From contig OZ241863.1 of NCBI GenBank assembly GCA_965203055.1, positions 3,968,001 to 4,032,000 of the forward strand: a stretch of 64,000 nt of DNA. The letters run 5' to 3'. The number at the start of each line of letters is the position of its first letter. Within the stretch, counting starts at the first letter, position 1. This document shows, piece after piece, positions 23,972-61,118 of the stretch. The notes under the pieces are model-generated. The model saw nothing but the letters and a program-made list of their open reading frames with translations. It was not told where the DNA came from and ran no database searches. The position numbers were made by a program, and so were the translations under genes. The stretch comes from Spirochaetia bacterium. Lineage in GTDB: Bacteria > Spirochaetota > Spirochaetia > SZUA-6 > Bin103.

Positions 23972-24229
23972 TCAGGTCCCGTCGCCGCCTGCCGCGGCCG
24001 CGCCGTTGGGTTGGCTCTTGAGCTTCTGATACTCCTGCTCGTCGATCCCGGTCGCCCGCTCGATCATCGACCAGTCGACGCCGGCCCGCAGGAAACCGTC
24101 GATCGTCTCCAGACGGCCTTCGCGTTGGCCTTCGCTCCGGCCTTCGCGATGTCGCTGTTCGGCAACCGCTCGCATCTCGTCACGCATCTGGTCGCGCCCT
24201 TCCTGGCGCAGCCGCTCGCCGCTCGTCAT
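23972..24229 (-). CDS. Probable internally initiated short Rpn C-terminal protein (RpnS-like, 85 aa)
   Basis: In-frame ATG at 24229 preceded by AGGAGG (24237-24242) at 7-nt spacing. Confidence 0.6.
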   Translation of the reverse strand: MTSGERLRQEGRDQMRDEMRAVAEQRHREGRSEGQREGRLETIDGFLRAGVDWSMIERATGIDEQEYQKLKSQPNGAAAAGGDGT

Positions 24230-36208: not shown

Positions 36209-36283
36209 GCGCATCCCGCGCCACAGGATACAACTGAAATAGCGTACCGTTTGTGGATTTGTTCCTGGTATACTCGAAATGCT

Positions 36284-38754: not shown

Positions 38755-38759
38755 AGTAT

Positions 38760-38850
38760 ACCTCGTTAACGTAAGGAGGGTCCCCGCAGGGGACCCTCTA
38801 TTGGGCCCACGCTCCAACCTAGGTATATTGCCGGGAGACGCTGGACTCTC
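38760..38850 (-). ncRNA. Putative structured leader/small RNA upstream of the NYN gene
   Basis: Lies between the promoter and the NYN start; perfect 10-bp stem GAGGGTCCCC-3nt-GGGGACCCTC (38776-38798) plus GAGA/TCTC and TCCAGC/GTTGGA pairings. Confidence 0.4.
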
Positions 38851-38853
38851 ATC

Positions 38854-38882
38854 AATATGCCCCACGACCGAACGGTAGTCAA
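38854..38882 (-). promoter_or_regulatory. Sigma70-like promoter for the NYN locus
   Basis: TTGACT-17 nt-CATATT. Confidence 0.6.
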
Positions 38883-38918
38883 GGGCTGGGCTGAGAACCT
38901 GACCTGACCATCTGCAGG

Positions 38919-39761
38919 TCAACTGCCGGTGGAGCTGTAGTGGCGGACGCCGACGTGCCAGAGCAGCAGGGCGGCGGCCAGGAACAGGGGCGCGGCCGCG
39001 GGGGCGGCCCAGCCGAACCAGTGCGGCGTGCCGAGCGGGTCGGGGCGGCCGAGGAGCGCTGCTACCGGGAAGTAGGTGACGGTGCCGACCGGCACCACGT
39101 AGAACAGGAAGCGGCGCAGGAAGCCGCGGTAGACGGTAGCGGGGTAGCTGCCGGCATCGACCGCGCCGTTGGTGACGATGGCGAACACCTCCAGCGACTG
39201 GATGGTCCAGAAGGTGATCGCCGCGGTGGCGACGAACACGCCCAGGAACAGCACGGTGACCGCGGCTGCGGTTTCCACCAGCAGCAGCGCCCGCGCCGGC
39301 GTCCACGGGATCGCCGCCGCGGCCAGGCCCCAGGTCAGGATCGCCGCCGCCTGCAGCCAGCGTCCCAGGCGCGCGAAGGCGAACTCGGCGCCCGCCACCT
39401 GCAGCACGGTGTTGCGCGGGCGCAGCAGCAGGCGGTCGAACTGGCCGCCGCGCACTTGGCGATGGAACATGTCGAAGCCGCGGCCGACCATCTCCGCGGT
39501 CGAGAAGCCGAGCATGACCAGCCCGTAGAGGATGGCGACCTCCGGCAACTCCCAGCCGCGTACGTTGCCGAACCGGCGCAGCAGCGCCCACACGCCCACG
39601 AACTCCACCGCGGTGATCAGCAGGGTTCCGGTCACCTGCAGGGCGAACGCCGCCGGGTACTGCAACTGCGCGCGGACCTGGGCGGCGACGTAGCGCCGGT
39701 AGAGCCGGCCGGCATCGCCCAGCGCCGCCCAGCCGGCAGGCAGCCGAGCGCTACCCGCCAA
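38919..39761 (-). CDS. ABC-2 family (DUF990-type) exporter permease
   Basis: QLQYP..F, GWELPEV..LYG, GQFDRLLLRP, YP..VY, YSSTGS. Confidence 0.88.
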   Translation of the reverse strand: MAGSARLPAGWAALGDAGRLYRRYVAAQVRAQLQYPAAFALQVTGTLLITAVEFVGVWALLRRFGNVRGWELPEVAILYGLVMLGFSTAEMVGRGFDMFHRQVRGGQFDRLLLRPRNTVLQVAGAEFAFARLGRWLQAAAILTWGLAAAAIPWTPARALLLVETAAAVTVLFLGVFVATAAITFWTIQSLEVFAIVTNGAVDAGSYPATVYRGFLRRFLFYVVPVGTVTYFPVAALLGRPDPLGTPHWFGWAAPAAAPLFLAAALLLWHVGVRHYSSTGS

Positions 39762-41736: not shown

Positions 41737-42423
41737 ATGGCAATGAAGAGAAAGGACGGGCTGGCGGCCAAGGTCCGGTTCGTCGTGGAGTTGACCGCCG
41801 CGCGCAGCGTCACTCCGGCCGGCGCCGTCAAGAAGCTGCAGGAGCAATATCCCGAAAGCAAGCCCAGCTACCTGCGCACCGTGGTCTACGCCCACGCCCG
41901 GAAGGCCGGGGCGCGATTCGCCGAGACCCCTGCGGCGGCGCCGGAGCGGCATGGCCGTCCCCGCGCCGGCACCTGTTTCCGGCGGGTATGGGACCTTGCC
42001 GATCAGATAACCCAAGAGCAGGGCCGGCGCGCCACCCGGCGCGAAGTGCGGGAGCGCTACGAGGGCGAGGGCGGGCGCGGCGCCACCGCCGGCGCCGCGT
42101 ATCAATCCTGGAACAAGGCGCGGGAGGAGTCGTCCGCCGGGCACGCGCCGCCCCGCAGCCTCGAGCCGCGGCAGCTCGCGGTCACCGCCGACGGGCGCTG
42201 CGTGATCCCCCGTGAGCTGCGCGCCGCGATGCGCCTGCAGCCGGGAGACCGCGTGATCGCGCGCCTCGAGGCGGGTGAGCTGCGGCTGGTGTCGCCGGCG
42301 GTCGCCGTGGAGCAGGTGCAGGCCAGAATGCGCAAGTACGGCGCCGCCGGAGAAGGAGCCGCCGGGGAAGGAGTCGTGGACCGGTTCCTGGCGGAACGGC
42401 GCGCGCTCTGGGGCGAAGAGTGA
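41737..42423 (+). CDS. AbrB/MazE-type antitoxin with long N-terminal extension
   Basis: VTADGRCVIPRELRAAMRLQPGDRV, VVDRFLAERR; AGGAGG RBS. Confidence 0.8.
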   Translation: MAMKRKDGLAAKVRFVVELTAARSVTPAGAVKKLQEQYPESKPSYLRTVVYAHARKAGARFAETPAAAPERHGRPRAGTCFRRVWDLADQITQEQGRRATRREVRERYEGEGGRGATAGAAYQSWNKAREESSAGHAPPRSLEPRQLAVTADGRCVIPRELRAAMRLQPGDRVIARLEAGELRLVSPAVAVEQVQARMRKYGAAGEGAAGEGVVDRFLAERRALWGEE

Positions 42424-42800
42424 GCACCGTGTTCGACAGCTCCGCGCTGCTTGCCGTCGTCTTCCGGGAGCGCGGGTCCGAGGCCGCGGCGCGGGCCCTG
42501 AACGGCGCCATGATCTCGGCGGTAAACGCCGCCGAGGTGGTCTCCCGGTTGGTGGATTCGGGCACCGGCGCCGCCGCCGCGCGGGCGGTCCTCCTGGCGT
42601 TCGGCCTGACGATCCGGCCATTCGACGCGGCGCTGGCAATCGACGCCGGCCTGCTGCGGGCGGCGACCCGCGAACTCGGCCTGTCGCTCGGCGACCGGGC
42701 GTGCATGGCGCTGGCGCGGCGCGAGCGGGCCAGAGTGATTACCGCCGATCGATCGTGGGCGGCGCTCGATCTCGGGGTCGAAATAGCGCTGATCCGCTAG
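42420..42800 (+). CDS. vapC: VapC PIN-domain toxin
   Basis: VFDSSALLA, ISAVNAAEV, GLSLGDRACMALA, ITADRSW; GTGA overlap. Confidence 0.92.
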   Translation: MSTVFDSSALLAVVFRERGSEAAARALNGAMISAVNAAEVVSRLVDSGTGAAAARAVLLAFGLTIRPFDAALAIDAGLLRAATRELGLSLGDRACMALARRERARVITADRSWAALDLGVEIALIR

Positions 42801-48653: not shown

Positions 48654-48706
48654 CGGCCTCTCGCCGGCGCCGGGGATTCGGCAATGCGGTATGATTGGCA
48701 GCAGCC

Positions 48707-50029
48707 ATGAGTCACACCGAACCTCTGCGTGCAGCCGCGCCGCCGCGGCTTGCCATCTTCCTGGCGGCCGCGTGCCTGCTGTTGCTGGGGTGCACCGCAT
48801 CCATGCCGGCGCAGGACCCTGCGCCGGCTGCGCCGGACCCCGCGGACCCTGCGCCGGCTGCGCCGGACCCCGCGGCCCCTGCGCCGGCTGCGCCGGACCC
48901 CGCGGCCCCTGCCGGCGCGCCCAACCACATCGCCGAGCTCGCGGCCGCGGTCGAGATCTGCCGGGTGCCCAATCCGCATCACCCCGACTCCGCGTTCGAC
49001 GTCACCAAGTCCTCAAAGGACCGCCATGGCGACTACTACATGACGTGGCAATGCCGGGAACCGTGTGACGACTGGCGCCAGTGCCACGTAGAGGCGCGCG
49101 CCAAGCGCGGCACCGTGCGCCGGGCGCTGGCGTTCGTGGTCGACGGCATGGGCGGCCACGTGGCCTACACCACCAGCCAGCGCGGCGACCGGACGCTGCT
49201 GCTGCACGGCGGCATGGGCGGCACCAACTACCTGCAGCCCCTGGCCGAAGCGATCGAGCGGAATTCGGACGCCGGCACCGTCATGGTGCGCTGGGAGCCG
49301 GGCTTCGAGCGGGTCTGGGGCTGGTTCACCCGCACCTCGGCGGCAGCGTCGGGGATGCCGGCGGCCAACAAGCGCGTCGCCAGCGTCATCGCCTGGGTGC
49401 ACGAGCACCTGGCCGGGCCCGGCGAGTTCGGCACCGTCGGCTGCAGCATGGGCACGGTGGCCACGTTCGGCGCCGTCTACTGGCACGACGTGGACGAGGT
49501 GGTGGACTACCAACTGTTCAGCGGCGGCCCCGCCCTGTGGGACATCAACGCCGGCTGCGGCCTGCGCACCTACTCCGAGGGCCGGTGCGACGTGGACGCC
49601 GGCGTCACCTGCAGCACCGACGCCGACTGCAGCCAACTCGGGCCGGGCAGCCGCTGCGACGTGCCCCGTCCGATACCGCCGTTCCGGTTGTACCGGCAGG
49701 TGGTCAATCACGTGCACGCCACGCCGGCCTGCGCCATTCCGGGCGACGGCGAAGACTTCATCCCCTACGCCCCCTTCGACCGGAGCAGCTTCGCCTTCAG
49801 CGGCGGCGACTGGGACCTCGACCATCCGGTGGACTTCGCCATGGACGTGCGCGGCGGCGACGGGGACGAGAACTGGGCGTTGGGAGACACGATGCGCGTG
49901 TTCGAAGACATCCGGTCGGCGGCCGGACATGACAAGCGCTGGCACGCCACCGTCAACTCCAACCACTGCGCGGCGCTGTTCGACGGCACCGCGCTGGAGA
50001 TGATCCTGGAGCGCATGGACCTGCGCTGA
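48707..50029 (+). CDS. Hypothetical lipoprotein with Pro/Ala repeat linker and alpha/beta-hydrolase-like, Cys-rich body
   Basis: Lipobox LLLGC, HGGMGG, GCSMG, late His (SNHC), C..D.DC motif. Confidence 0.6.
   Translation: MSHTEPLRAAAPPRLAIFLAAACLLLLGCTASMPAQDPAPAAPDPADPAPAAPDPAAPAPAAPDPAAPAGAPNHIAELAAAVEICRVPNPHHPDSAFDVTKSSKDRHGDYYMTWQCREPCDDWRQCHVEARAKRGTVRRALAFVVDGMGGHVAYTTSQRGDRTLLLHGGMGGTNYLQPLAEAIERNSDAGTVMVRWEPGFERVWGWFTRTSAAASGMPAANKRVASVIAWVHEHLAGPGEFGTVGCSMGTVATFGAVYWHDVDEVVDYQLFSGGPALWDINAGCGLRTYSEGRCDVDAGVTCSTDADCSQLGPGSRCDVPRPIPPFRLYRQVVNHVHATPACAIPGDGEDFIPYAPFDRSSFAFSGGDWDLDHPVDFAMDVRGGDGDENWALGDTMRVFEDIRSAAGHDKRWHATVNSNHCAALFDGTALEMILERMDLR
48814..48912 (+). repeat. 30-bp coding tandem repeat, about 3.3 copies ((D/A)PAPAAPDPA)
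   Basis: gg(a/c)ccctgcgccggctgcgccggaccccgc repeated with no spacers. Confidence 0.9.
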
Positions 50030-50046: not shown

Positions 50047-50991
50047 ATGACCTTCAACACGACCAACACCACCTTTCGCCAGTTGATGGGCAACGGGCTG
50101 AGCTATCGCGTGCCGCCGTTTCAGCGCGACTACTCCTGGGGACCCGACGAGTGGGACGACCTGTGGAACGACCTCGCGGAGCCGGCCCACTACCTGGGGT
50201 ACTTGGTACTGCAATCGACCGACAACCGGACGTTCGCGATCATCGACGGACAGCAGCGCATGACCACGCTCAGCCTGCTGATGCTGGCCGCGGTGGCGCA
50301 CCTCACCGAACTGGCCGCTCCGGACACCGCCGACGACCCGGAACTGCGGCGCGCCGCGCAGCTGCGCGCCAACTACCTGGGTTACCTCGACCCGGTGAGC
50401 CTGGTGCCGCGCTCCAAGCTGACGCTCAACCGCAACGACGACCGCTTCTACCAGGACTACCTGGTGCCGCTCGAACGCCTGCCGCAGCGGGGATTGAATC
50501 ACCACCTCGGCGGAGCGGCGGACACGATCAGGGAACTGCGCAGCGTCTACCCTGACGACGGCGAGTTCCGGGCGGCCTTCGCCGACAAGGAGCTGCGCAC
50601 CACCAGCAGCCGCAACCGCAAGGTGGCGCGGTATCTGCTGTTCCGGCTGGAACGCCACGTATCAGGAGAGGACTTCGACTTCGAGAGCGCGCAGTACGAC
50701 CTGGAGCACGTGCTGCCGGAGTGGCCCGGCGAAGCCTGGGAGCAGTTCGACGACCGGCAGCGCGAATCGTTCACCTACCGGCTCGGCAACCTCACGCTGC
50801 TGGCCGCGGCCGACAACCGCGCCGCGGGAAACGCCGACTTCGCCGCAAAGCGCCCCACCTACGGCGACAGCCGATTCGCCGTTACGCGCAAGATCGCGGG
50901 AGATTACGATGCCTGGACCGTCGACAAGATCGCCTCCCGGCAGCGCTGGATGGCGCGCCAGGCGACCAGCATCTGGCGCCTGGACTTCTGA
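50047..50991 (+). CDS. DUF262/DUF1524 (GmrSD-like) protein with apparent in-frame internal deletion
   Basis: VPPFQRDYSW, IIDGQQR, then directly the HNH region DLEHVLP..RLGNLTLL..N; only 314 aa. Confidence 0.75.
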   Translation: MTFNTTNTTFRQLMGNGLSYRVPPFQRDYSWGPDEWDDLWNDLAEPAHYLGYLVLQSTDNRTFAIIDGQQRMTTLSLLMLAAVAHLTELAAPDTADDPELRRAAQLRANYLGYLDPVSLVPRSKLTLNRNDDRFYQDYLVPLERLPQRGLNHHLGGAADTIRELRSVYPDDGEFRAAFADKELRTTSSRNRKVARYLLFRLERHVSGEDFDFESAQYDLEHVLPEWPGEAWEQFDDRQRESFTYRLGNLTLLAAADNRAAGNADFAAKRPTYGDSRFAVTRKIAGDYDAWTVDKIASRQRWMARQATSIWRLDF

Positions 50992-50996
50992 ATCCG

Positions 50997-53900
50997 ATGG
51001 ACGCCAGCGAGAAGTTTCAGCATCTGTTGCGGGAGCTCTTTCAGTTCGATTGCGCTGACCTGGATTTCGGCATCTACCGGATCATGAACCACAAGCGCGG
51101 CGTGATCGAGAATTTCATCGCCGAAGACCTGCCGCGCACTGTCGCGGACGAGCTGCAGCGCGGCCCGCTGGCCGATCAGGCGCAGGCCGTCGAGCGCCTG
51201 CAGGAGCTTGCCCGGCAGATCCGGGATGTCCTGGGCGGGAATGCGCTCGACGCAGACGGCAACTTGGCGGTGACGTATCGAGACACCCCTTTGGGCAGGA
51301 AATACCTTCGGGCGAAGCGGACCGGCGGCCTCAGCCGGGACACGCTCGAGGCAGCCATCTACAACCATCTGTATGCGTTCTTCAGCCGCTACTATCAGGA
51401 CGGTGACTTCATCTCGAAGCGGCGCTACTCCGGAAGCCAGCGCTACGCCATTCCCTACAACGGCGAAGAGGTCTATCTGCACTGGGCGAACAAGGACCAG
51501 TACTACGTAAAATCCGACGAGCATTTCCGCAACTACACCTTCACGCGGCAGGGCGTCAGCGTGCACTTCACGGTACGGAACGCGAACGTGGAACAGAACG
51601 ACGTCAAGGGCGACAAGCGGTTCTTCCTGCCGCAGGTCGCAGAGATCACCTGCGATGCGGAAGCCGGCCGTGTGCTGATCCCGTTCGAATACCGGCCCCT
51701 GACCGGCCGGGAGGAGACCGTCTACGGCCGCAGGAACCAGCAAGAAGCGATCATCCGCTCCGCCCTGACCGAGATTCCCCGACGGTTGCGCGGCGCCGAC
51801 GCGGCGGTAGCGGCGCTGACGGCCGAGCGCCACCGCAACGGCGAAGGCCGGCCGGTTGATTTCCTCGAGTACCACCTCCGCCGCTACACGCGGCGCAATT
51901 CCTCCGACTTCTTCGTTCACAAGAACCTGCGGGGGTTCCTCACACAGGAGCTCGATTTCTATCTGAAGAACGAGGTGCTCGACCTGGATGAAATCACCGC
52001 CGTCGGCGACGACGTGGCCGAAGGTTGGTTCCAGCTCATGCGGACGATCAAGGCGGTGGGCGGGCGCATCATCGAGTTTCTGGATCAGATCGAGAGCTTC
52101 CAGAAGATGCTGTGGGAGAAGCGCAAGTTCATCACCGAGACCCAGTACTGCATCACCATCGGCACCATCGACAGGAGCTTCTATCCCGACATCGCCGCCT
52201 GCGACCCGCAGTGGGCGGAATGGAAGGGACTGTTCCAAATCGACGAGGATGCGGTGAATCTGTTCAACTGCAATGGCGACCGCACTGACCGGCGCGTGTC
52301 CTTCCTGGAAACCCATCCGACGCTGGTACTCGATACCCGGCACTTCGATTCCGGCTTCGTGGATCGGTTGCTCAACGACGTGGATCACGTCGACGATCGA
52401 ACCGATGGTCTGTTGATTCACAGCGAGAACTTTCAGGCGCTCGGCCTGTTGCGCGAATCCTACCGCAACAGGGTCGAATGCGTATACTTGGATCCGCCAT
52501 ACAATACCGGTGACTCGGAGATTCTCTACAAGAACGAGTATCTTCTTTCTTCCTGGTTGACGATGATGGAAAACCGACTCTCTCTCATGATGGGATTACT
52601 CAACGAGGATCCCGTTCTATTCATCGCGATTGACGATTTTGAGATGGTCGATCTCTGTGGACTGATCGACAAGCACTATCCGTTCTTCCGTCGCGAGATG
52701 ATCATCGTCAATCACCACCCCCAGGGCGGCAAGGCGACGCTGTTGGCGAACACCCATGAGTACATGATCAGTTGCGTAAGCAAGGCTTCAGGTCGGACCT
52801 TGGTGGGACGTATCGCGAAAGACGGCGATGAACTTCGACCATTCAAGCGCAGCGGGACCGCTGCGAGCAATTTCCGCTACGCGCGGCCGAACAGCTTCTA
52901 CTCCTTACTGGTCGACCCGGAGACCAGGGCCGTCGTCGGCGCGGAGCCTCCTCCGGCAAGGAATAGTAACGAGTACCCGCGCGGCAATACCGAAGAAGGA
53001 TATGTCCGAGTCTATCCATTGGGAACTCAGGGTGAGGAGCGGGTCTGGCGCCGCTCGTATGAGTCGTGCCTGCCGCTGATCAGAAGCGGCAAGCTGCAGT
53101 GTAGCAACGGCATGACCATCTACCACCGCATCGAAGTGCAGGATCGCAGCGCCGCATTGTTCAGCAACTGGGTCGATTCACGATATAATGCCGGCACCTT
53201 CGGCGCCAATCTGCTTGGCGACATTATCGGAGCCAACAACTCTTTTTCCTACCCGAAGTCGGTTCACACCGTCGGCGACGCCATCTTCGGAGCAGGTATC
53301 GAAGACGACTCCTGTTGTGTCGATTTCTTCGCCGGATCGGGTACGACCGGGCACGCGGTAATCAATCTGAACCGTGAGGATGGCGGAGATCGCAAGTTCA
53401 TCCTGGTCGAGATGGGCCGCCATTTCGATACGGTATTGATGCCGCGCATCAAGAAAGTGACGTTCACCCCGGAGTGGAAAGATGGGAAGCCGGTGCGGAT
53501 GGCGACCCGGGACGAGGCTGAACGCGGCCCGCGCATCGTCAAGTACCATCGCCTGGAGAGCTACGAGGACGCGCTGAACAACATCGCTTTCGACGATGCG
53601 GCCGGTCAGCAGGCGCTGCGGTTCGACGATTACCTGCTCAAGTACCTGCTCAGGTGGGAGACGCGCACCAGCGCGACCCTGCTGAACGTGGAGAAGCTGA
53701 ATCGGCCGTTCGATTACCGGCTGGACGTCCATGCCGACGGCCGGCGTCACGAACGGGTAGCGGACCTGCCGGAGACCTTCAACTACCTGCTGGGCCTGCG
53801 CGTGCAAACGCGCCGCGTGCACCACGACGAAGGGCGCCGCTATCTGGTCTATCGCGGCAGCGTCGAAGACCGGACGACGGTGGTCATCTGGCGGGAGACG

Positions 53901-54068
53901 GAGGGCTGGCGGAAGGAAGAGCTGATTCGGGACAAGGAGTTCGTGACCGAACGGGACCTGACCGCCGGAGCGGACGCGGTGTTCGTCAACGGCGATTCCT
54001 TCATCCCGAACGCGAAGGCCCTGGAGCCGGTGTTCAAGGCGCGGATGTTCGCGCCGTTGGGAAACTGA
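50997..54068 (+). CDS. mod: Type III R-M methyltransferase (Mod), copy 1
   Basis: LRELFQFDCADLDFGIYRIMN, YLDPPYN, YPKS, DFFAGSGTTGHAV in beta-class order; directly upstream of res. Confidence 0.92.
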   Translation: MDASEKFQHLLRELFQFDCADLDFGIYRIMNHKRGVIENFIAEDLPRTVADELQRGPLADQAQAVERLQELARQIRDVLGGNALDADGNLAVTYRDTPLGRKYLRAKRTGGLSRDTLEAAIYNHLYAFFSRYYQDGDFISKRRYSGSQRYAIPYNGEEVYLHWANKDQYYVKSDEHFRNYTFTRQGVSVHFTVRNANVEQNDVKGDKRFFLPQVAEITCDAEAGRVLIPFEYRPLTGREETVYGRRNQQEAIIRSALTEIPRRLRGADAAVAALTAERHRNGEGRPVDFLEYHLRRYTRRNSSDFFVHKNLRGFLTQELDFYLKNEVLDLDEITAVGDDVAEGWFQLMRTIKAVGGRIIEFLDQIESFQKMLWEKRKFITETQYCITIGTIDRSFYPDIAACDPQWAEWKGLFQIDEDAVNLFNCNGDRTDRRVSFLETHPTLVLDTRHFDSGFVDRLLNDVDHVDDRTDGLLIHSENFQALGLLRESYRNRVECVYLDPPYNTGDSEILYKNEYLLSSWLTMMENRLSLMMGLLNEDPVLFIAIDDFEMVDLCGLIDKHYPFFRREMIIVNHHPQGGKATLLANTHEYMISCVSKASGRTLVGRIAKDGDELRPFKRSGTAASNFRYARPNSFYSLLVDPETRAVVGAEPPPARNSNEYPRGNTEEGYVRVYPLGTQGEERVWRRSYESCLPLIRSGKLQCSNGMTIYHRIEVQDRSAALFSNWVDSRYNAGTFGANLLGDIIGANNSFSYPKSVHTVGDAIFGAGIEDDSCCVDFFAGSGTTGHAVINLNREDGGDRKFILVEMGRHFDTVLMPRIKKVTFTPEWKDGKPVRMATRDEAERGPRIVKYHRLESYEDALNNIAFDDAAGQQALRFDDYLLKYLLRWETRTSATLLNVEKLNRPFDYRLDVHADGRRHERVADLPETFNYLLGLRVQTRRVHHDEGRRYLVYRGSVEDRTTVVIWRETEGWRKEELIRDKEFVTERDLTAGADAVFVNGDSFIPNAKALEPVFKARMFAPLGN
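51012..52346 (+). repeat. Outer inverted-repeat arm (mod N-terminal region), pairs with 58950-60095
   Basis: Near-identical DNA apart from two indels; includes a 62-bp perfect match, 52166-52227 vs 59036-59097. Confidence 0.9.
53451..54060 (+). repeat. Inner inverted-repeat arm (mod C-terminal region), pairs with 57239-57827
   Basis: Near-identical DNA; for example the 40 bp ending at 54060 match 57239-57278 perfectly. Confidence 0.9.
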
Positions 54069-54070
54069 CG

Positions 54071-57000
54071 GTGCCCCGGCGAAGGGGCGTCAGCGGCGCC
54101 GCCCGCGAGTCCGGCGCGGCGCCGCACGTGAGGCTGGAACAGCGGCTGGTGCTGCTGTCCTGGCTGAACGGGCTGCTCGGCTACCGGAGCAACCGTGACC
54201 TGCTGCGCGATCTGAAGGAGGCCCCGGAAGGGTTCGACGCGGCCGGACGCAGCCATCTCTACCACCGGCTGACGGCGCGCGGCGAGCTGCAGGTGCCGGC
54301 GGCCGATCTGGCCCGATACGACGACAACGTCCGCGCGCACCTTGACGCCATGAACGCCCGCCGCTCCGAGCCGATCACGCTGCGCTACTTTCAGCACGCC
54401 GCGCTCCTCCATACCGAGCTGTTCCTGGATCGATACTTCCATGGCCGGGGTGAGCTGATCCGCTCGCTGAACCGGTTCGCGGCGGACCGGAACGCTACCC
54501 GGCCGTTCGCCGACCCCGCCCCGCGCGACGCCGACTTCACGCAATCGGACCTGAAGAAGCTGGCGTTCTGGATGGCGACCGGCAGCGGCAAGACGCTCAT
54601 CATGCACGTCAACTACCGCCAGTTCCTGCACTACCACCGCCGGCCGCTCGACAACGTCCTGCTGATCACGCCGAACGAGGGCTTGAGCGAGCAGCATCTG
54701 GCGGAGCTGGCCGCCTCGGACATCCGGTGCCGGAGCTTCGACCCGGACGAGAGCGGTCTCATGACGGCCGGGGAGGATGAGGTCCGGGTCATCGAGATCA
54801 CCAAGCTGGTGCAGGAGAAGCGCGGCGGCGGCGTGAGCGTGCCGGTGGAGGCCTTCGAGGGCAACAACCTGATCTTCGTGGACGAGGGGCACAAGGGCTC
54901 CGGCGGCGCCGCGTGGCGCAGCTTCCGCGACGCGCTGGGCGAGACCGGCTTCACGTTCGAGTACAGCGCCACCTTCGGGCAGGCGCTGAGCGCGGCGCGC
55001 AACGACCAGCTCACCGCCGAGTATGGCAAGTCGATCATCTTCGACTACTCGTACCGCTACTTCCACGGCGACGGATACGGCAAGGACTTCCACGTGCTCA
55101 ACCTGCAGGAGGAAGCGGCGGAGGATAGAACCGACCTGCTGCTGCTCGGCAACCTGCTCTCTTTCTACGAGCAGCGGCGGCTGTTTGCGCGGCAGGCGGC
55201 GGCGCTGCGCCCGTACCACCTGGAACGCCCGCTGTGGGTGTTCGTCGGCAGCACCGTGAACGCGGTCTACACCGAGTTCGGCCGGAAGCGCAGCGACGTG
55301 CTCACGGTAGTCCGATTCCTGCACCGCGTATTGGAGAACCGGCGGGGCTGGGTGGTCGGGGCCATCGAGGAGCTGCTCGCCGGCCGGAGCGGTCTGACCG
55401 CGCCGGACGGACGGGACGCGTTCGGCGATCGATTCAAGTATCTGCGCGAAGAATCCCTGTCGGCCGCGGCCGTGTACCGGGACCTGCTCGCTACGGTGCT
55501 GCACGCGCCGGCGGGAGGCGGCCTGCACCTGTGCGCCATCCGCGGCAGCGCCGGTGAGATCGGACTGAAGGCGAGCGGCGCCGAACACTACTTCGGACTG
55601 ATCTACGTCGGCGACGCCGCCGCCTTCAGGAAACTCGCCGCGGCCGACGACTGCGGAATGACGTTGGAAGAGGACGTGGTCAGCGGCTCGCTGTTCGACG
55701 CCATCGGCCGTCCGGCCACCACCATCGACGTGCTGATCGGGGCGAAGAAATTCATGGAGGGCTGGAACTCGTGGCGGGTGGCGAGCATGGGACTGCTCAA
55801 CATCGGCCGCAAGGAGGGATCGGAGATCATCCAGCTCTTCGGGCGCGGCGTGCGCCTGCGGGGCAGGGGACGCAGCCTGAAGCGAAGCGCGGCGCTGGCC
55901 GGCCGGCATCCGGCCCATCTCGGCCTGCTGGAGACGCTCAACGTGTTCGCCGTGCGCGCCAACTACATGACGCAGTTCCGCGCGTACCTGGAACGGGAAG
56001 GGATCGAGACCGAAGGTGACGTCGAGTTGCCGCTCGGCATCAGGACGAACCGGGACTTCCTGCGCCGGGGCCTGGTCGTACCTCGGGTGCCGGAGGAGCG
56101 GAACTTCGCCGCCGAGGCGTATCTCCTGCTGGAGCCGGAGCGGGACCTCCGGGTGCGCGTGGACCTGTCGCTCAAGGCGCAGTCCCTCGAAAGCGGCGCC
56201 GGCGGCCTCACCGCGGTTGCGATGCGCGGCGGCCGGGAGGTGGAAATACCGGACGAAAGTCTCGAGCTCGTCGATTGGCAGCGGGTCTACCTGGAGCTCC
56301 TCGAATACCGGGAACGCAGGGGCTACGCCAACCTCGTCATTCGGCCGGAAACGGCCCGGACGATCATGGAGACGTCCCACCCCGGCCGGCTCTACCGCCT
56401 GACCGCCGACGAGTCAATTGTCGCGCCGACTTCCTTCGCCGGCGCCGAACCGCTCCACGAGGCGGTGCTCTCCATCCTGCGGCACTACCTGGACCGGTTC
56501 TATCGCGTCCGCCGGGAGCGCTGGGAGGCGCAGCACATGGTGTACGCGGAGCTCGACGAGGAGCATGCGAACTTCCGGGACTACACCGTCCGGATCGCCC
56601 GCAGCGAAGTCGAGCTGATCGACGCGATTCAGAAGCTCATCGCCGAAGCGGACCGCATCTACCGGCAGGAGACGCAGGAGTTGCCGGCCGTTCACTTCGA
56701 CCGCCACCTGTACCAGCCGCTGCTGGTGGAGCGCGGCGCCAAGGTACGGAGCGACCCGCCGGGCCTCAACGAGGCGGAACGTCGGTTCGTCGAGGATCTG
56801 CGGCAGTACTGTTTGGCGGAGCGCGACGGATCGCTCGCCGGCAAGGAAATCTATCTCCTGCGCAACCTGAGCAAGGGGAAGGGGATCGGATTCTTCGAGC
56901 GGCGCGGCTTCTATCCCGACTTCATCCTGTGGATCAAGGCCGGCTCCGCGCAGCGCATCGTCTTCGTCGAACCGCACGGCCTGCTGCACGCCGAGGCGTA

Positions 57001-57265
57001 CCGGCATGACGACAAGGCGCGGCTGCACGAATCCCTGCCGGGACTGGCCGCGGCGATGGCGTCACGCACCACGCTGAAGAACGTGACCCTCGACTCCTTC
57101 ATCGTCTCCGCGACCCCCTACGAAGAGGTGCGCACCAGATATGATGACGGCACCTGGGACCGGGAGCGTTTCGGAGACCGGCACATCCTGTTCCGCGAAG
57201 CCGATCCCCGCGGCTACGTCGCCCGGATCGTCACCCCTCCAACGGCGCGAACATCCGCGCCTTGA
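54071..57265 (+). CDS. res: Type III R-M restriction subunit (Res), SF2 helicase plus PD-(D/E)xK-like nuclease
   Basis: FWMATGSGKT, FVDEGH, FEYSATF, KKFMEGW, QLFGRGVR, FYPDFILW..FVEPHG. Confidence 0.92.
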   Translation: MPRRRGVSGAARESGAAPHVRLEQRLVLLSWLNGLLGYRSNRDLLRDLKEAPEGFDAAGRSHLYHRLTARGELQVPAADLARYDDNVRAHLDAMNARRSEPITLRYFQHAALLHTELFLDRYFHGRGELIRSLNRFAADRNATRPFADPAPRDADFTQSDLKKLAFWMATGSGKTLIMHVNYRQFLHYHRRPLDNVLLITPNEGLSEQHLAELAASDIRCRSFDPDESGLMTAGEDEVRVIEITKLVQEKRGGGVSVPVEAFEGNNLIFVDEGHKGSGGAAWRSFRDALGETGFTFEYSATFGQALSAARNDQLTAEYGKSIIFDYSYRYFHGDGYGKDFHVLNLQEEAAEDRTDLLLLGNLLSFYEQRRLFARQAAALRPYHLERPLWVFVGSTVNAVYTEFGRKRSDVLTVVRFLHRVLENRRGWVVGAIEELLAGRSGLTAPDGRDAFGDRFKYLREESLSAAAVYRDLLATVLHAPAGGGLHLCAIRGSAGEIGLKASGAEHYFGLIYVGDAAAFRKLAAADDCGMTLEEDVVSGSLFDAIGRPATTIDVLIGAKKFMEGWNSWRVASMGLLNIGRKEGSEIIQLFGRGVRLRGRGRSLKRSAALAGRHPAHLGLLETLNVFAVRANYMTQFRAYLEREGIETEGDVELPLGIRTNRDFLRRGLVVPRVPEERNFAAEAYLLLEPERDLRVRVDLSLKAQSLESGAGGLTAVAMRGGREVEIPDESLELVDWQRVYLELLEYRERRGYANLVIRPETARTIMETSHPGRLYRLTADESIVAPTSFAGAEPLHEAVLSILRHYLDRFYRVRRERWEAQHMVYAELDEEHANFRDYTVRIARSEVELIDAIQKLIAEADRIYRQETQELPAVHFDRHLYQPLLVERGAKVRSDPPGLNEAERRFVEDLRQYCLAERDGSLAGKEIYLLRNLSKGKGIGFFERRGFYPDFILWIKAGSAQRIVFVEPHGLLHAEAYRHDDKARLHESLPGLAAAMASRTTLKNVTLDSFIVSATPYEEVRTRYDDGTWDRERFGDRHILFREADPRGYVARIVTPPTARTSAP

Positions 57266-60137
57266 ACACCGGCTCCAGCGCCTTCGCGTCCGGGATGAAG
57301 GAATCGCCGTTGACGAAGACCGCGTCCGCCCCGGCGGTCAGGTCCCGTTCGGTCACGAACTCCCTGTCCCGGATCAGCTCCTCCTTCCGCCAGCCCTCCG
57401 TCTCGCGCCAGATGACCACCGCGGTCCGGTCTTCGACGCTGCCGCGATAGACCAGATAGCGGCGCCCGTCGTCGTGGTACACGCGGCGCGTCCGCACGCG
57501 CAGTCCCAGCAGGTAGTTGAAGGTCTCCGGCAGATCCGCGCCGGCATCGACGCCCAGCCGGTAATCGAACGGCCGATTCAGCTTCTCCACGTTCAGCAGG
57601 GTCGCGCTCGCGCGCGTCTCCCACTTGAGCAGGTACTTGAGCACGTAGTCGTCGAACTGCAGCGCCCGCTGGCCTGCCGCATCGTCGAACGCGATGTTGT
57701 TCAGCGCCTCCTCGTAGCTCTCCAGGCGATGGTACTTGACGATGCGCGGGCCGCGTTCAGCTTCGTCCCGGGTCGCCGTCCGCGCCGGCTTCCCGTCCTT
57801 CCACTCCGGCGTGAACGTGACCTTCTTCATTCGCGGCAGGAGAATGGCATCGAACTGGCCGCCGACTTCGACCAGGACGAACCTGCGCCGCGCGCCGTCG
57901 TCCCGGTTCAGGCGCATGACCGCGTGGCCGGTCGTGCCCGAGCCGGCGAAGTAATCCAACACCAGGCCGTCGGTTCCGTCCGCGGCGGCGCCGATCAGGT
58001 CGGCGTAGAATGACACCGGGTGCGCGTAGGGGAAGTCGTTCAACCCGAGCGAATCGAGCTCCGATTTGCCCCTCCTCGCATCCTGAAGCACGGAGGGAAG
58101 CTGACGGCTCGATGATTCGCGCAGCAACCGTTTCTGGCGTGGCTGCGTACTCTCGTCCGCTCCGAACAGTATTTCTCCCTGCGCCATCATCTCGCGCAGC
58201 GTAGCCGGCGTTCTCGAGAAGCCGTTGGGCGGAACCGGGCACGGCCGGCCGGTCGCCGGGTGTATCAAGGGCTCGAAGAACTTGGGATCCGTTCTCGGTT
58301 CCGGCGCCCGCAGACTCACGCTCGTGTATACCCTGCCCTCGTCGTCGAGATAGCGATACGCCTTCTCGCCGCCGCTCAGGGCATCGTTCCGGCGTATCCA
58401 GTCGGCGAATTGCGCTCTTGCCTGCTGCAGGGAAGCGGGATACTTGCGCACCAACTCCTTCGCCCGGTCCAGAATCGACTGCGCGTGACTCGTCCGCAGG
58501 TTGAGCGCGCGGTCCGACTTCGTTCTCCATATGACGTACTCGTGCTGAATCGCAATCCCGCCGCCCCCGGTCATCGGATTCCTCTTGTCCCAGACGATCG
58601 TGCCGGCGTTGGGGATGCCCAGTCGCTCGAACAGCAGGTGGAGCCGTTCGTACTCGTTCTCGTCGATGTGGCAGACCAACGAACCGCGGTCGTTCAGGAG
58701 CGCCGCGGCGCGGCGCAGGTGCTGCTCCATCATCGTCAGCCAGCTCGAATGCCGGTATGCGTTCTTGTACAGAAAACCGCTCGTCTGCGTATTGTAGGGA
58801 GGATCGACGTGTATGCAGCTTATCGTTCTCCGGTATGCGGCGTGCAGCAAGCTCAGTGCCTGGGTGTTGTCGCCATGCATCAGCAGACCGTCCAGCACGT
58901 CGTCCAGATCGTCGATACTGCCGATCAGGCGGTCGACGAAGTCGGGCGCGAAATGCCGGGTGTCGAGTACCAGCGCCGGATGGGTTTCCAGGAAGGTCAG
59001 GCGCCGGGCCGTGCGGTCGTCGATGCGGAACAGCTCCTTCCATTCCGCCCACTGCGGGTCGCAGGCGGCGATGTCGGGATAGAAGCTCCTGTCGATGTTG
59101 CCGACCGTGATGCAGTACCAGGTCTCGGTGATGAACTTGCGCTTCTCCCACAGCATCTTCCGGAAGCTCTCGATCTGATCCAGGAACTCGATGATCCGCC
59201 CCCCGACCGCCTTGATCGCCCGCATGACCTGGAACCAGTCTTCGGCCCGGCTCTCCCCGGCGGCCGCCAGCTCGTCCAGATCGAGCACCTCGTTCTTCAG
59301 ATAGAAATCGAGCTCCTGGGTGAGGAACCCCCGCAGGTTCTTGTGGATGAAGAAGTCGGAGGCGTTGCGCCGCGTGTAGCGGCGGAGGTGGTATTCCAGG
59401 AAGTCGACCGGCCGCCCGTCGCCGTTGCGGTGGCGCTCCGCCGTCAGCGCTGCCAGCGCCGCGCCGGCGCCACCCAACCGCCGGGGAATCTCGGCCAGGG
59501 CGGAGCGGATGATCGCCTCCTGCCGGTTCCTGCGGCCGTAGAAGGTCTCCTCCCGGCCGGTCAGGGGCCGGTATTCGAACGGGATCAGCACGAGCCCGGC
59601 TTCCGCGTCGCAGGTGATCTCCTCGACCTGCGGCAGGAAGAACCGTTTGTCGCCCTTGACGTCGTTCCGTTCCACGTTCGCGGCCCGCACCGTGAAGCGC
59701 ACGGTGACGCCCTGCCGCGCGAAGGCGTAGTCGCGAAAGTGCTCGTCCGACTTGACGTAGTACTGGTCGTCGTTCGCCCAGTAGAGATAGACCTCTTCGC
59801 CGTTGTAGGGAATGGCGTAGCGCTGCCGCCTGGAGTAGCGCCGCTTCGAGATGAAGTCGCCGTCCTGATAGTAGCGGCTGAAGAACGCGTGCAGATGGTT
59901 GTAGATGGCCGCCTCGGGCGCCTGCGCCTGGCCGGCGAGCGGACCGCGTTGCAGCTCCTCCGCGATGGTGCGCGGCAGGTCCTCGGCGATGAATGCCTCG
60001 ATCACGCCGCGCCGGTGGTTCATGATCCGGTAGATGCCGAAATCCAGGTCGGCGCAGTCGAACTGAAAGAGCTCGCGCAACAGATCCTGGAACTTATCCA
60101 AATTGACGTGTAGGGGCTGATATTGGGCTTTACACAT
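57231..60137 (-). CDS. mod: Type III R-M methyltransferase (Mod), copy 2, inverted, different catalytic/TRD core
   Basis: Same N- and C-termini as copy 1; HVDPPYN, FPYAHP, DYFAGSGTTGHAV. Start uncertain (ATG 60137 or TTG 60101). Confidence 0.9.
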   Translation of the reverse strand: MCKAQYQPLHVNLDKFQDLLRELFQFDCADLDFGIYRIMNHRRGVIEAFIAEDLPRTIAEELQRGPLAGQAQAPEAAIYNHLHAFFSRYYQDGDFISKRRYSRRQRYAIPYNGEEVYLYWANDDQYYVKSDEHFRDYAFARQGVTVRFTVRAANVERNDVKGDKRFFLPQVEEITCDAEAGLVLIPFEYRPLTGREETFYGRRNRQEAIIRSALAEIPRRLGGAGAALAALTAERHRNGDGRPVDFLEYHLRRYTRRNASDFFIHKNLRGFLTQELDFYLKNEVLDLDELAAAGESRAEDWFQVMRAIKAVGGRIIEFLDQIESFRKMLWEKRKFITETWYCITVGNIDRSFYPDIAACDPQWAEWKELFRIDDRTARRLTFLETHPALVLDTRHFAPDFVDRLIGSIDDLDDVLDGLLMHGDNTQALSLLHAAYRRTISCIHVDPPYNTQTSGFLYKNAYRHSSWLTMMEQHLRRAAALLNDRGSLVCHIDENEYERLHLLFERLGIPNAGTIVWDKRNPMTGGGGIAIQHEYVIWRTKSDRALNLRTSHAQSILDRAKELVRKYPASLQQARAQFADWIRRNDALSGGEKAYRYLDDEGRVYTSVSLRAPEPRTDPKFFEPLIHPATGRPCPVPPNGFSRTPATLREMMAQGEILFGADESTQPRQKRLLRESSSRQLPSVLQDARRGKSELDSLGLNDFPYAHPVSFYADLIGAAADGTDGLVLDYFAGSGTTGHAVMRLNRDDGARRRFVLVEVGGQFDAILLPRMKKVTFTPEWKDGKPARTATRDEAERGPRIVKYHRLESYEEALNNIAFDDAAGQRALQFDDYVLKYLLKWETRASATLLNVEKLNRPFDYRLGVDAGADLPETFNYLLGLRVRTRRVYHDDGRRYLVYRGSVEDRTAVVIWRETEGWRKEELIRDREFVTERDLTAGADAVFVNGDSFIPDAKALEPVFKARMFAPLEG

Positions 60138-60156
60138 CAACTTGGATGTATAAGCC
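60126..60156. promoter_or_regulatory. AT-rich imperfect palindrome at the 5' end of mod copy 2
   Basis: GGCTTTACACATC-AACTTG-GATGTATAAGCC. Confidence 0.5.
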
Positions 60157-60227: not shown

Positions 60228-61118
60228 CTAGTCGGCGTGGAAGATGGAGAACATCATCCGCCGCGCGTGGCTCGACAGGGAGTCGTAGTTCTGCCAACCG
60301 CTGTATTGCTCGAGCTTGATGGACCCCGGCAGCGTAGCGATCAGCCCGAACACGGCGAACGGCCCGCCCTCTTCCTGCGCCTTCGTCATCTGCCCCATCA
60401 CTACGTCGTAGAGATCGTTGTAGTACTGGGCATTGTCACGCAGCACCTGCGGGTCGGTCGACACCGAGTGGGTGGTCAGGGCGTGTTCCAAATCCCATTC
60501 GCCGATGGTATTCAGAATCCTGCGGGTTCCGGTGAAGTTCTTGTCATCAACCCAGTCGGAGCCGGTGAGCGCCTGGTCCTCGTACAGGTCGGCGGTCAAT
60601 ACCACCTTCTGCCGCGGCAGGTACACCACGGTGGTCGCATCGCCGTCGCCGGGGCCGAGGTAGTGCAGTTCCACCGGCGTATCGCCGACCATGATCCGCT
60701 TGTAGTTGATGAAGCTCTCGAACGATTGCGGCACGTCATTGAACGGCGCCTCCGCCAGCGCGAATACCGGCCGGCAGTTGACGTGACAATGCACCGTCGC
60801 GTCCGGGAACAGACTGGTCCCGCCGGCGTGATCGAAATGCTCGTGCGTCAGCACGACGTGCGAGATCGGACTGTCGGTGAGCGTGCCGACGAAGTCCTGC
60901 AGCATCGGCCCCCGCAGGTTGTTTGCCGGCTCGGTCACCAGCACCTCCTCTCCCGAAACGACGACCAGGCTGCCGTAGCCCAGCGCGAACCAGTAGTATA
61001 CGCCGTCGGCAAGCTGGTTGGTGACCGGCGGCGGCATCTGCTGCGCGTGCAGGTTTACCGTCACCCCGGCCAGCGCCGCCGCCAACAAGGCGGCCCCTTT
61101 CTTGACTATCTTGGTCAC
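60228..61118 (-). CDS. Secreted MBL-fold metallo-hydrolase
   Basis: Signal peptide, VVLTHEHFDHAGG, VVLTADL, TTH; GAGGAGG RBS. Confidence 0.85.
   Translation of the reverse strand: MTKIVKKGAALLAAALAGVTVNLHAQQMPPPVTNQLADGVYYWFALGYGSLVVVSGEEVLVTEPANNLRGPMLQDFVGTLTDSPISHVVLTHEHFDHAGGTSLFPDATVHCHVNCRPVFALAEAPFNDVPQSFESFINYKRIMVGDTPVELHYLGPGDGDATTVVYLPRQKVVLTADLYEDQALTGSDWVDDKNFTGTRRILNTIGEWDLEHALTTHSVSTDPQVLRDNAQYYNDLYDVVMGQMTKAQEEGGPFAVFGLIATLPGSIKLEQYSGWQNYDSLSSHARRMMFSIFHAD

Follow-up and report, generated by a model that had tools for sequence, protein, structure and literature searches.

Gene content and organization of the locus

The window, meaning the whole 64-kb stretch of DNA that was analysed, contains two full-length mod ORFs that converge on one res gene in a long-form locus for Type III restriction and modification (R-M). 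The original prediction had described two full-length mods facing each other across a single res, and the ORFs confirm this layout. The genes of the locus and its surroundings are:

48695..50029, + strand: orfX, 444 aa, which opens the apparent operon 5' of mod1; its membership in the system is doubtful
50047..50991, + strand: GmrSD-like (DUF262+DUF1524) putative Type IV restriction enzyme, 314 aa
50997..54068, + strand: mod1, long-form Type III Mod, 1023 aa, TRD type 'core1'
54071..57265, + strand: res, long-form Type III Res, 1064 aa, GTG start
57231..60137/60140, - strand: mod2, 968 aa from ATG 60137 (969 from TTG 60140), TRD type 'core2'
57231..57265, no strand: 35-nt stretch in which the converging genes res and mod2 overlap at their 3' ends, from sequence
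60228..61118, - strand: MBL-fold hydrolase gene (PF00753), upstream of and co-directional with mod2, with an 88-nt gap

On the forward strand 17 nt separate orfX from the GmrSD-like gene, the stop of the latter lies 5 nt upstream of the mod1 start, and the res GTG (54071) is 2 nt past the mod1 TGA (54066-54068). These four genes appear to form one operon with mod1-res at its end, and mod1 and res have the arrangement by which Type III systems are recognized, with mod directly upstream of res in an operon. The GmrSD-like protein has both Pfam domains (PF03235, 3e-22; PF07510, 1e-29) and hits PADLOC HEC-06/Orf5 (1e-113) at the profile ends only (6-162 and 405-561 of ~560). No Pfam, NCBIfam or PADLOC family was found for orfX; its ESM Atlas clusters are alpha/beta-hydrolase-like (0.95-0.86), which serves as a lead only. 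Neither of these two genes is present at any of 80 related loci.

The MBL-fold hydrolase gene is a possible source of mod2 transcription. One sigma70-like site (61202-61174) lies near this gene and does not exceed chance; promoter and terminator scans yielded nothing above chance, and a search for structured RNAs gave 0 Rfam matches within the 64-kb window.

The Res protein and the two Mod proteins

Res carries an SF2 helicase/ATPase module (PF04851 ResIII, 1.4e-10; PADLOC REase_III PDLC03654, 1e-144), and its GSGKT and DEGH motifs are invariant across 22 homologues. A C-terminal PD-(D/E)xK endonuclease domain is the other hallmark of a Type III Res, and here it is a candidate feature. The last 231 aa have zero Pfam matches at E<=10, the Res profile has zero PDB matches, and the last 264 aa (weak AF2 model, pLDDT 64) have 0 fold matches at E<=0.001; the weak top fold matches of this C-terminus are mostly PD-(D/E)xK nucleases (among them XisH, R2 endonuclease, Can2 and PaqCI). 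A conserved PDF...VEPHG pattern in Res was spotted by eye.

Mod1 and Mod2 share 635/1044 identities (BLASTP, E=0), a likeness that is paralogy and not chance. Both match PF01555 (Mod1, 6e-19; Mod2, 6e-26) and PADLOC MTase_III PDLC03646 (Mod1, 6e-188; Mod2, 5e-212). Sequence matches of Mod1 in the PDB are to the Type III Mods 6k0w, 7dsu (Mbo45V) and 4zcf (EcoP15I Mod), and fold matches of the model (pLDDT 72) are likewise to these. In Mod1, DPPY (aa 499-502) precedes FAGSGT (aa 778-783); both motifs are intact in Mod2, and the order in the two proteins (DPPY before FxGxG, with the TRD between) is that of beta-class N6-adenine methyltransferases. Database proteins identical to Mod1, Mod2 and Res are P0371, P0374 and P0389, respectively.

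Relative to Mod1, Mod2 has three deletions and lacks the helical hairpin of aa 65-116, a region in which the AF2 model has helices at 56-79, 98-109 and 114-132.

Inverted repeats within mod1 and mod2

The mod genes contain nested inverted repeats (outer and inner arms) that enclose divergent central cassettes:

51009..52570, no strand: left outer arm (mod1 N-terminal region); dS 0.25-0.37, dN/dS 0.18-0.27
52269..53306, + strand: mod1 divergent cassette, aa ~425-770, motif IV region and TRD; GC minimum of the locus (0.564)
53311..54060, no strand: left inner arm (mod1 C-terminal region); dS 0.44 (aa 771-860) and 0.14 (aa 861-1021)
57239..57966, no strand: right inner arm (mod2 C-terminal region, antisense), from repeat comparison
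57957..59021, - strand: mod2 divergent cassette, motif IV region and TRD core2
58726..60098, no strand: right outer arm (mod2 N-terminal region, antisense), from repeat comparison

These arms had been described as near-identical nested inverted repeats; the nesting and inversion hold, but near-identity does not, as overall arm identity is 83-95% for DNA and 84-90% for protein and the longest exact match is 62 nt. The outer arms align at 88.8% between 51009-51187 and 59920-60098, and at 82.8% over 1235 nt between 51343-52570 and 58726-59920 (90% over the best 904 nt); positions 51188-51342 (52 codons, mod1 aa 65-116) are without a counterpart in mod2. Identity of the inner arms (53311-54060 vs 57239-57966) is 87.3% over 750 nt and rises to 95% over the last 301 nt, with a 40-nt exact match at their extreme ends; the final 9 res codons fall within the right inner arm. 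No further arm copies or silent cassettes were found in the window. Arm dN/dS values of 0.18-0.49 indicate purifying selection on both copies. A suspected window-specific gene conversion in the C arm vanished once the sequences were properly aligned.

The central cassettes are unrelated, with 18-21% amino acid identity in the TRD, in agreement with the earlier observation that the cores differ. At the DNA level the divergent block corresponds to mod1 aa ~425-770, DPPY included, with dS of 1.4-1.9.

Conservation of the mod1-res-mod2 trio

Gene order in relatives (lineages A-C) was inferred from proteins, C-terminal tails and contig sizes, not read in DNA. Counting the window's own 4.56-Mb contig, on which proteins identical to the Mod1, Mod2 and Res of the window occur, the trio is found on 9 contigs, including single contigs of four other lineage-A assemblies (128169, 26403, 27725 and 374599 nt) and four lineage-B assemblies (4601231, 25260, 42136 and 213898 nt). 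On a further lineage-B contig, of 6403 nt, both Mods are listed and there is no room for res. The trio recurs in a second lineage, and probably in a third.

Mod2 is kept at 92-100% identity in 12 relatives, and amino acid identity of the arms among relatives is 92-98% for mod2 and 90-97% for mod1. Res orthologues differ by ~21% across lineages. Orthologues of core1 share 83-90% identity in lineages B and C and 70-80% in distant loci; for core2 the corresponding ranges are 82-87% and 49-62%.

Many of the relatives come from metagenome assemblies and mod2 has its three deletions relative to mod1, two points in favour of the second mod being a chimera of two strains or the decaying remnant of a second mod-res system. 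Occurrence of the same trio on nine contigs from two lineages rules out an assembly chimera, the artefact that the original prediction had named as a threat to its own reading. As for decay, the mod2 ORF is intact with its motifs, its dN/dS is 0.2-0.5, its conservation among relatives is 92-98%, no res remnant accompanies it and it overlaps res by 35 nt. An artefactual or relict origin of mod2 is therefore scarcely credible.

Potential for inversion

A crossover in the inner arms would put res behind mod2, together with its 'GN*' tail and the GTG start coupled at 2 nt, while a crossover in the outer arms would place each cassette under the other promoter; neither event interrupts a frame. The sequence bears out the predicted inversion geometry, with intact frames and mod-res coupling in all products, but the headline claim of an inversion switch does not fare as well. 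Such a switch would be reversible, driven by RecA or a trans-acting recombinase, and would generate subpopulations with differing restriction and methylation states. The permissive geometry, which keeps frames, coupled start and Res tail in either state, is consistent with it, as are the 40-nt exact match at the inner-arm ends and exact runs of 40-62 nt, since the usual minimum for RecA pairing is shorter than these.

The relatives argue against it. All 14 lineage-A core1 Mods have arms of the mod1 type, with the 52-aa segment, and end in GN, GT or EN, and all 11 full-length lineage-A core2 Mods have arms of the mod2 type and end in EG or AG; the two copies can be told apart by 21 diagnostic residues in the N-arm and 9 in the C-arm. 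By this protein proxy, applied to consensus assemblies in which a minority orientation is invisible, a tail or N-arm of the other copy occurs in 0/14 core1 and 0/11 core2 orthologues. Because an inner-arm inversion must swap tails and an outer-arm inversion N-termini, the 0/14 argues against orientation change; if consensus orientation were a coin flip, its p would be ~6e-5 (by arithmetic). A single orientation in relatives had been named beforehand as evidence against the switch, and this is what the proxy gives. Moreover, paralogous arms within one genome are ~84-88% identical in amino acids as compared to 90-97% for orthologues between genomes. The arms of lineage A have therefore not been homogenised recently. 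Short-form Mods of lineages A-C have core2 in 24/24 cases, and every second-copy Mod is without the hairpin of aa ~60-116; no short core1 form was found at high identity in these lineages, and the reciprocal product (short N-arm with core1) is absent among the 271 family proteins classified.

One observation in the relatives points the other way. In Res cluster P0001, 4/15 members are listed on contigs of 3364-3795 nt, that is, res alone bounded by the inner arms, as compared to 2/120 Res representatives elsewhere. These res-only contigs could reflect mixed orientation or repeat collapse.

No recombinase of the integrase, resolvase or invertase family occurs in the 48 ORFs Pfam-scanned across 64 kb, so the earlier remark that no recombinase is adjacent holds for these ORFs; the sole mobile-element family among them is a YhgA-like Transposase_31 (23972-24976), 26 kb distant. 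A dedicated recombinase near a shufflon-type switch is usual, not universal, and known shufflon repeats are near-identical, whereas the arms here are 5-17% diverged. Among shufflon features the locus has inverted repeats inside specificity genes; it lacks near-identity, size asymmetry, a nearby recombinase and, by protein proxy, an orientation difference among relatives. Typical programmed inversions show gene/pseudogene asymmetry, and size asymmetry and long repeats are predictive of them in the available text of Milman, Yelin & Kishony 2023 (PMC9881135). Mod1 (1023 aa) and mod2 (968 aa) are both full-length with their own starts and show no such asymmetry. Taken with the arm evidence, a reversible inversion switch is improbable at this locus. 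Phase variation through repeat tracts found no support: TRF detected no SSR tract in either mod, and its only two hits, both weak, are 12-nt, 2-copy repeats that lie in mod2.

Slow exchange through the arms

The arms do appear to have been exchanged over evolution. In the arm tree, sequences group by lineage and not by copy (A1+A2+P0154, 98; B+C, 99), and an AU test of a group chosen after the first tree was inspected rejects a tree in which all second copies form a single clade (delta lnL 183, p=9e-11). If A and B/C had each undergone a duplication of their own, the same lineage-wise clustering would be expected. The cores, unlike the arms, behave as orthologues across lineages. C-lineage arms are 94-99% alike. 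P0240 and P0408 are full-length, have the tail PLET and combine B1-type arms (98% over aa 1-64 and 96% at their C end) with a core2 that is 90% identical to the B2 core; a cassette-swapped Mod, with mod1-type arms around core2, is thereby present in a relative. These sequence comparisons support a slow evolutionary exchange via the arms, which also counts on the side of inversion.

A more daring version, to which we give a slim chance, is a recombinase-independent 'slow shufflon', in which rare RecA-mediated arm crossovers would reversibly flip res or swap TRD cassettes. If true, populations would always hold minority cells with a different coupling of nuclease and specificity, and variation by inversion would be described for the first time in a Type III system. 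The locus is a useful negative example: its repeats look ready for inversion, yet about a dozen relatives show no change of orientation, so that geometry alone should not count as evidence of a switch.

One Res and two Mods

Since the relatives all share the same fixed arrangement, the most likely identity of the locus, in spite of its flip-ready look, is that of a stable defence system with two specificities. Our preferred reading, about evenly balanced between right and wrong, is a stable, vertically inherited two-Mod, one-Res Type III locus that gained a second Mod paralogue. Cleavage by Type III enzymes is ATP-dependent and requires two inversely oriented unmethylated sites, and modification is hemimethylation of an asymmetric site. 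In the preferred reading, mod1-res is the canonical, translationally coupled pair with mod2 convergent downstream, and Mod2, with the common scaffold and another motif-IV/TRD cassette, should methylate a different asymmetric site. Both Mods would be active, and, given the family-specific scaffold retained by mod2, the single Res could join the dimer of either Mod, so that one nuclease gene would provide two restriction specificities. Arm similarity would then reflect paralogy and occasional gene conversion over long time scales, with arm homology permitting rare TRD exchange and not programmed frequent inversion. The fallback in the original prediction, that two Mods may simply share one Res, is the option that the evidence favours, with the cooperation of Res and Mod2 being what we infer. 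A bolder reading has one Res serving two Mod dimers or Mod1/Mod2 heterodimers.

The layout could also be fixed with Mod2 acting as a Res-independent, methylase-only paralogue (for epigenetic marking or protection) and only Mod1 arming Res, an alternative that we consider tentative and rather unlikely. Type III Mod dimers methylate without Res, as in EcoP15I-type enzymes, and mod2 would be transcribed separately and convergently, being uncoupled from res. All 24 second-copy Mods of lineages A-C have lost the same N-terminal hairpin, and if the aa ~60-116 hairpin contacts Res, Mod2 would be methylase-only. Yet ~900 aa of N- and C-terminal family scaffold remain under purifying selection in Mod2, across lineages whose Res proteins are ~21% apart, and mod2 is always beside res; neither is expected to be needed or kept by a pure methylase. 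Moreover, gene conversion still exchanges arms between mod2 and mod1 with no apparent harm.

With two Mods of different TRDs on one scaffold bracketing one Res, conserved across two or three related lineages, the locus poses the question of whether one Type III nuclease can be programmed by two specificity subunits. It also raises the questions of what role the hairpin deletion of the second copy has, and at what rate inverted paralogues exchange TRDs.

Relation to known systems

Type III systems are usually described as one Mod with one Res, and their variation as coming from slippage in repeat tracts or from TRDs that are replaced between strains. In the literature searched we found no invertible and no two-Mod/one-Res Type III system, in agreement with the earlier statement that no invertible Type III arrangement is described. 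The closest multi-Mod case is Mycoplasma bovis PG45, in which three co-localised Type III mod alleles (M1/M2/M3.Mbo45ORF167P) have central TRDs that differ between conserved 5' and 3' domains, read in the available text as duplication followed by TRD acquisition (Atack et al. 2018, PMC5909438). Both loci have co-localised Mod paralogues with common ends and differing TRDs, but the M. bovis mods carry GA repeat tracts for ON/OFF phase variation (PMC5909438), one SSR tract per mod, and mod1 and mod2 have none; here, two inverted copies enclose res, and a characteristic N-terminal deletion marks the second. In Helicobacter pylori, TRDs are described as moving from one mod gene to another through homologous recombination in their conserved flanks (Furuta & Kobayashi 2012, PMC3467074). 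The TRD tree disagrees with the rest-of-gene tree in both cases; the H. pylori partners lie at separate loci with a res each, whereas here inverted repeats flank one res.

In inverting Type I hsdS loci (for example SpnD39III), as characterized in the available text, one expressed gene is accompanied by silent partial copies and usually by an adjacent recombinase, and orientation varies within strains (Atack et al. 2020, PMC7394358; PMC10123105). The locus shares with these the inverted repeats inside specificity genes, through which recombination could in principle reassort specificity, but silent copies, a recombinase and varying orientation were not found here, and the likeness concerns possible mechanism, not membership. 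Programmed inversions also alter PglX, DrmMI and Type IIG enzymes, likewise methyltransferase or specificity genes with intragenic inverted repeats; Type III Mod is absent from the families given in the available text, and the predictive features named there (size asymmetry, long repeats) misfit two full-length, 83-95% identical copies (Milman, Yelin & Kishony 2023, PMC9881135).

The nearest relatives by family are canonical long-form Type III systems (PDLC03646/PDLC03654; ~1020-aa Mod, ~1060-aa Res), which belong to the same families at 57-73% identity and share the tight mod-then-res coupling and TRD shuffling on a conserved scaffold. They differ in being single-mod. In a scan of 80 related loci, all at Res identity of 73% or less, a second mod downstream of res was found at 0/58 loci with >=3.5 kb of downstream flank; a single upstream mod was present at 63/63 loci with enough upstream flank, and the order was mod-then-res in all. 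The suggested search for convergent mod-res-mod loci recovered the trio in the close lineages and not at these distant loci. A 1042-aa convergent ORF at L082, a candidate second Mod, was found not to be a Mod. On plasmids 27 records matched, and the two inspected, both haloarchaeal, are single-mod.

Genes and protein families of the locus

Three large genes span 50,997-60,140 of the window (window G+C ~67%); they are listed here with the two genes that precede them.

48695-50029, + strand: orfX, protein without a family, 444 aa; 17-nt gap to the GmrSD-like gene
50047-50991, + strand: GmrSD-like protein (DUF262+DUF1524), 314 aa; 5 nt upstream of mod1
50997-54068, + strand: mod1, 1023 aa
54071-57265, + strand: res, 1064 aa; GTG start 2 nt past the mod1 TGA
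57231-60137, - strand: mod2, 968 aa from the ATG; TTG of the ORF at 60140

The 3' ends of res and mod2 converge with a 35-nt overlap, and an MBL-fold gene lies upstream of mod2 on the same strand. Both Mods match PF01555, the PADLOC Type III methyltransferase model PDLC03646 (Mod1, E-188; Mod2, E-212) and the sequences of solved Type III Mods (EcoP15I 4zcf, 6k0w, Mbo45V 7dsu), and a fold search with the Mod1 AlphaFold model (pLDDT 72) ranks those same structures first; DPPY precedes FAGSGT in each. Res has a ResIII helicase domain and matches PADLOC REase_III (PDLC03654, 1e-144), while sequence and fold searches gave no confirmation of a C-terminal nuclease fold. The family is very large, with 7932 of 8000 scored candidates at E≤1e-10 and 65-79% identity, across phyla.

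The GmrSD-like protein matches both ends of the ~560-aa PADLOC HEC-06/Orf5 profiles, with the middle ~240 positions missing, and the position of its gene just before mod1 would fit co-transcription with the Type III genes. Searches of Pfam, NCBIfam and PADLOC returned no family for orfX, for which ESM Atlas offers alpha/beta-hydrolase-like similarity as a lead only; it holds a 30-nt tandem repeat (48814-48912, 3.3 copies, 98% matches).

Inverted repeats and divergent cassettes

Mod1 and Mod2 share 635 of 1044 positions (BLASTP), and their common ends form nested inverted repeats.

51009-51187 with 59920-60098, inverted: outer arms, part 1, 88.8% identity
51343-52570 with 58726-59920, inverted: outer arms, part 2, 82.8% over 1235 nt; best 904 nt at 90%
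53311-54060 with 57239-57966, inverted: inner arms, 87.3%; last 301 nt at 95%

BLASTP and the repeat alignments thus bear out the nested repeats around differing cores described in the original prediction; the ‘near-identical’ arms do not hold up, with 83-95% DNA identity and a longest exact match of 62 nt. The divergent block (mod1 aa ~425-770; core1 in mod1, core2 in mod2) comprises the motif IV region and the TRD, is saturated in dS (1.4-1.9) and has the lowest G+C of the locus. The arms have a dS of 0.14-0.44 and a dN/dS of 0.18-0.49. Mod2 lacks 52 codons present in mod1 (aa 65-116), predicted by the Mod1 model to form part of a helical hairpin. The missing hairpin favors the main rival reading, a fixed arrangement in which Mod2 acts as a methylase only, which we regard as possible though rather unlikely.

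Capacity for inversion and conservation of orientation

The geometry is permissive for the proposed flip, as an inner-arm inversion would hand mod2 the same tail and coupled res start: along with the entire res, the segment 54061-57238 carries the tail of mod1 (‘GN*’) and the 2-nt spacer, and the last nine Res codons lie inside an arm stretch that the two sides share exactly (40-nt exact run). Judged from the repeat layout, an outer-arm crossover would place each cassette, and all that follows inward of it, behind the other promoter. Nothing indicates that the locus flips. A Pfam scan of 48 ORFs along the 64 kb assigned none to an integrase, invertase or resolvase family, no repeat tracts were found, and the window holds no silent cassettes.

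Close relatives were compared as proteins, sampling the other members of the 90% clusters that contain the window's own Mod1, Mod2 and Res (P0371, P0374 and P0389, on a 4.56-Mb contig). All 14 core1 Mods contain the 52-aa segment in an N-arm of mod1 type and end in GN (6), GT (7) or EN (1); all 11 full-length core2 Mods (one truncated cluster member was excluded) have the mod2-type N-arm and end in EG (10) or AG (1). The two copies are told apart by 21 N-arm and 9 C-arm residues, with isolated exceptions and a single two-site patch (P0383). No core1 (0/14) or core2 (0/11) Mod carries the N-arm or tail of the other copy, so the predicted change of orientation was not seen among relatives; because any inversion would exchange tails or N-termini, all sampled consensus genomes share one arrangement. 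We read the locus, with about even confidence, as a stable Type III system of two Mods and one Res.

A functional switch inverting at low frequency seems improbable. It would be compatible with these data in that all relatives are consensus assemblies, and in the nearest Res cluster (P0001) 4 of the 15 members listed lie on contigs of 3.4-3.8 kb that end at the inner arms and carry res alone, vs. only 2 of 120 representatives elsewhere. These four contigs (3364-3795 nt) carry the complete Res of P0387, P0390, P0394 and P0397, and in them the assemblies break at the inner inverted repeats.

Exchange between arms

Between the window's lineage (A) and two related lineages (B and C), the cores behave like orthologs (core1, 83-90% identical; core2, 82-87%). 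For the arms, copies from one lineage resemble each other more closely than they do their positional orthologs: over four arm segments, the mod1- and mod2-type copies share 88/80/87/93% in A and 94/89/90/99% in C, and the mod1-type copies of A and B share 79/78/75/81%. Arm trees unite both A copies with the database protein P0154 (support 98) and all B and C copies in another clade (99). A tree constrained to hold the second copies in one clade is rejected (AU test, delta lnL 183, p = 9e-11), the grouping having been chosen after seeing an earlier tree. In P0240 and P0408, from relatives of lineage B, a core2 cassette lies between mod1-type arms and tail of that lineage. The lineage-wise similarity and these mixed proteins together indicate that arms recombine by gene conversion and cassette replacement, much as reported for the Type III mod genes of H. 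pylori (PMC3467074). Within lineage A such exchange is too slow to be visible: paralogous arms within a genome (83.5% aa, N; 87.5% aa, C) are more diverged than orthologous arms between genomes (90-97%), and thus there has been no recent homogenization.

Distribution of the architecture

A Res profile search yielded 522 confirmed loci, the best 80 of which were compared (Res identity 73% or less). A single co-directional mod occurs in all 63 loci with sufficient upstream flank, and two plasmid homologs inspected are single-mod as well. The convergent mod-res-mod architecture is absent from these distant loci (second mod in 0/58 whose downstream flank reaches 3.5 kb or more); the trio recurs in lineage B according to protein records, and is not confined to lineage A. 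Paired up by the length of their contigs, those records place Res (~79% identical to the window Res) together with a core1 Mod and a short core2 Mod on four lineage B contigs, a short core2 Mod and Res on three lineage C contigs, and a core1 Mod and Res on one further lineage C contig. All 24 short-form Mods across lineages A-C have core2, and the N-terminal deletion falls in the same place, with slightly different edges in A vs. B and C.

Neither an invertible Type III locus nor a two-Mod/one-Res Type III system was found in the literature searched, which included PMC9881135, PMC11741434, PMC10123105, PMC5909438 and PMC10028968; supplements might list cases. The nearest precedent is M. bovis PG45, with three co-localized mod alleles sharing conserved ends and differing in their TRDs (PMC5909438).

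The GmrSD-like gene and orfX occur in 0/80 related loci. In two of these, the mod-res gap holds a nucleotidyltransferase (MNT) and HepT-like RNase toxin-antitoxin pair (L008, 7364-7991; L020, 7328-7970), and ~20/80 have a similar gap of ~530-790 nt; in L007, L021, L031, L032, L035, L073 and others, 3.4-5 kb of genes separate mod from res. The lineage B Mods P0124 and P0413 both have a longest listed contig of 6403 nt, on which a complete pair of Mods (5994 nt) would not leave space for res; this may reflect a different gene order or mis-assembly. P0451 has 1742 aa, against 1038 aa for the representative of its Mod cluster, and is possibly a fused form.

Other features of the window

A low-GC stretch at 16-3928 (+; 0.51-0.59 vs. 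~0.70) encodes two large AAA_16/AAA_22 ATPase proteins (772 and 536 aa), with a third at 6362-7954; the region at the window start may be a foreign or defence island. An AAA_21 (AbiEii/OLD-like) ATPase at 18513-19826 (+) lies in another low-GC patch. The sole mobile-element family found in the window is a YhgA-like Transposase_31 (Rpn-type) protein at 23972-24976 (-).

34069-35181, + strand: D12-class adenine DNA methyltransferase
36251-37522, + strand: AAA_14/DUF4143 ATPase
37945-39591, - strand: NYN-domain protein

At 41737-42800 (+), a MazE-like antitoxin domain protein is followed by a PIN-domain (VapC-like) protein, probably forming a toxin-antitoxin pair.
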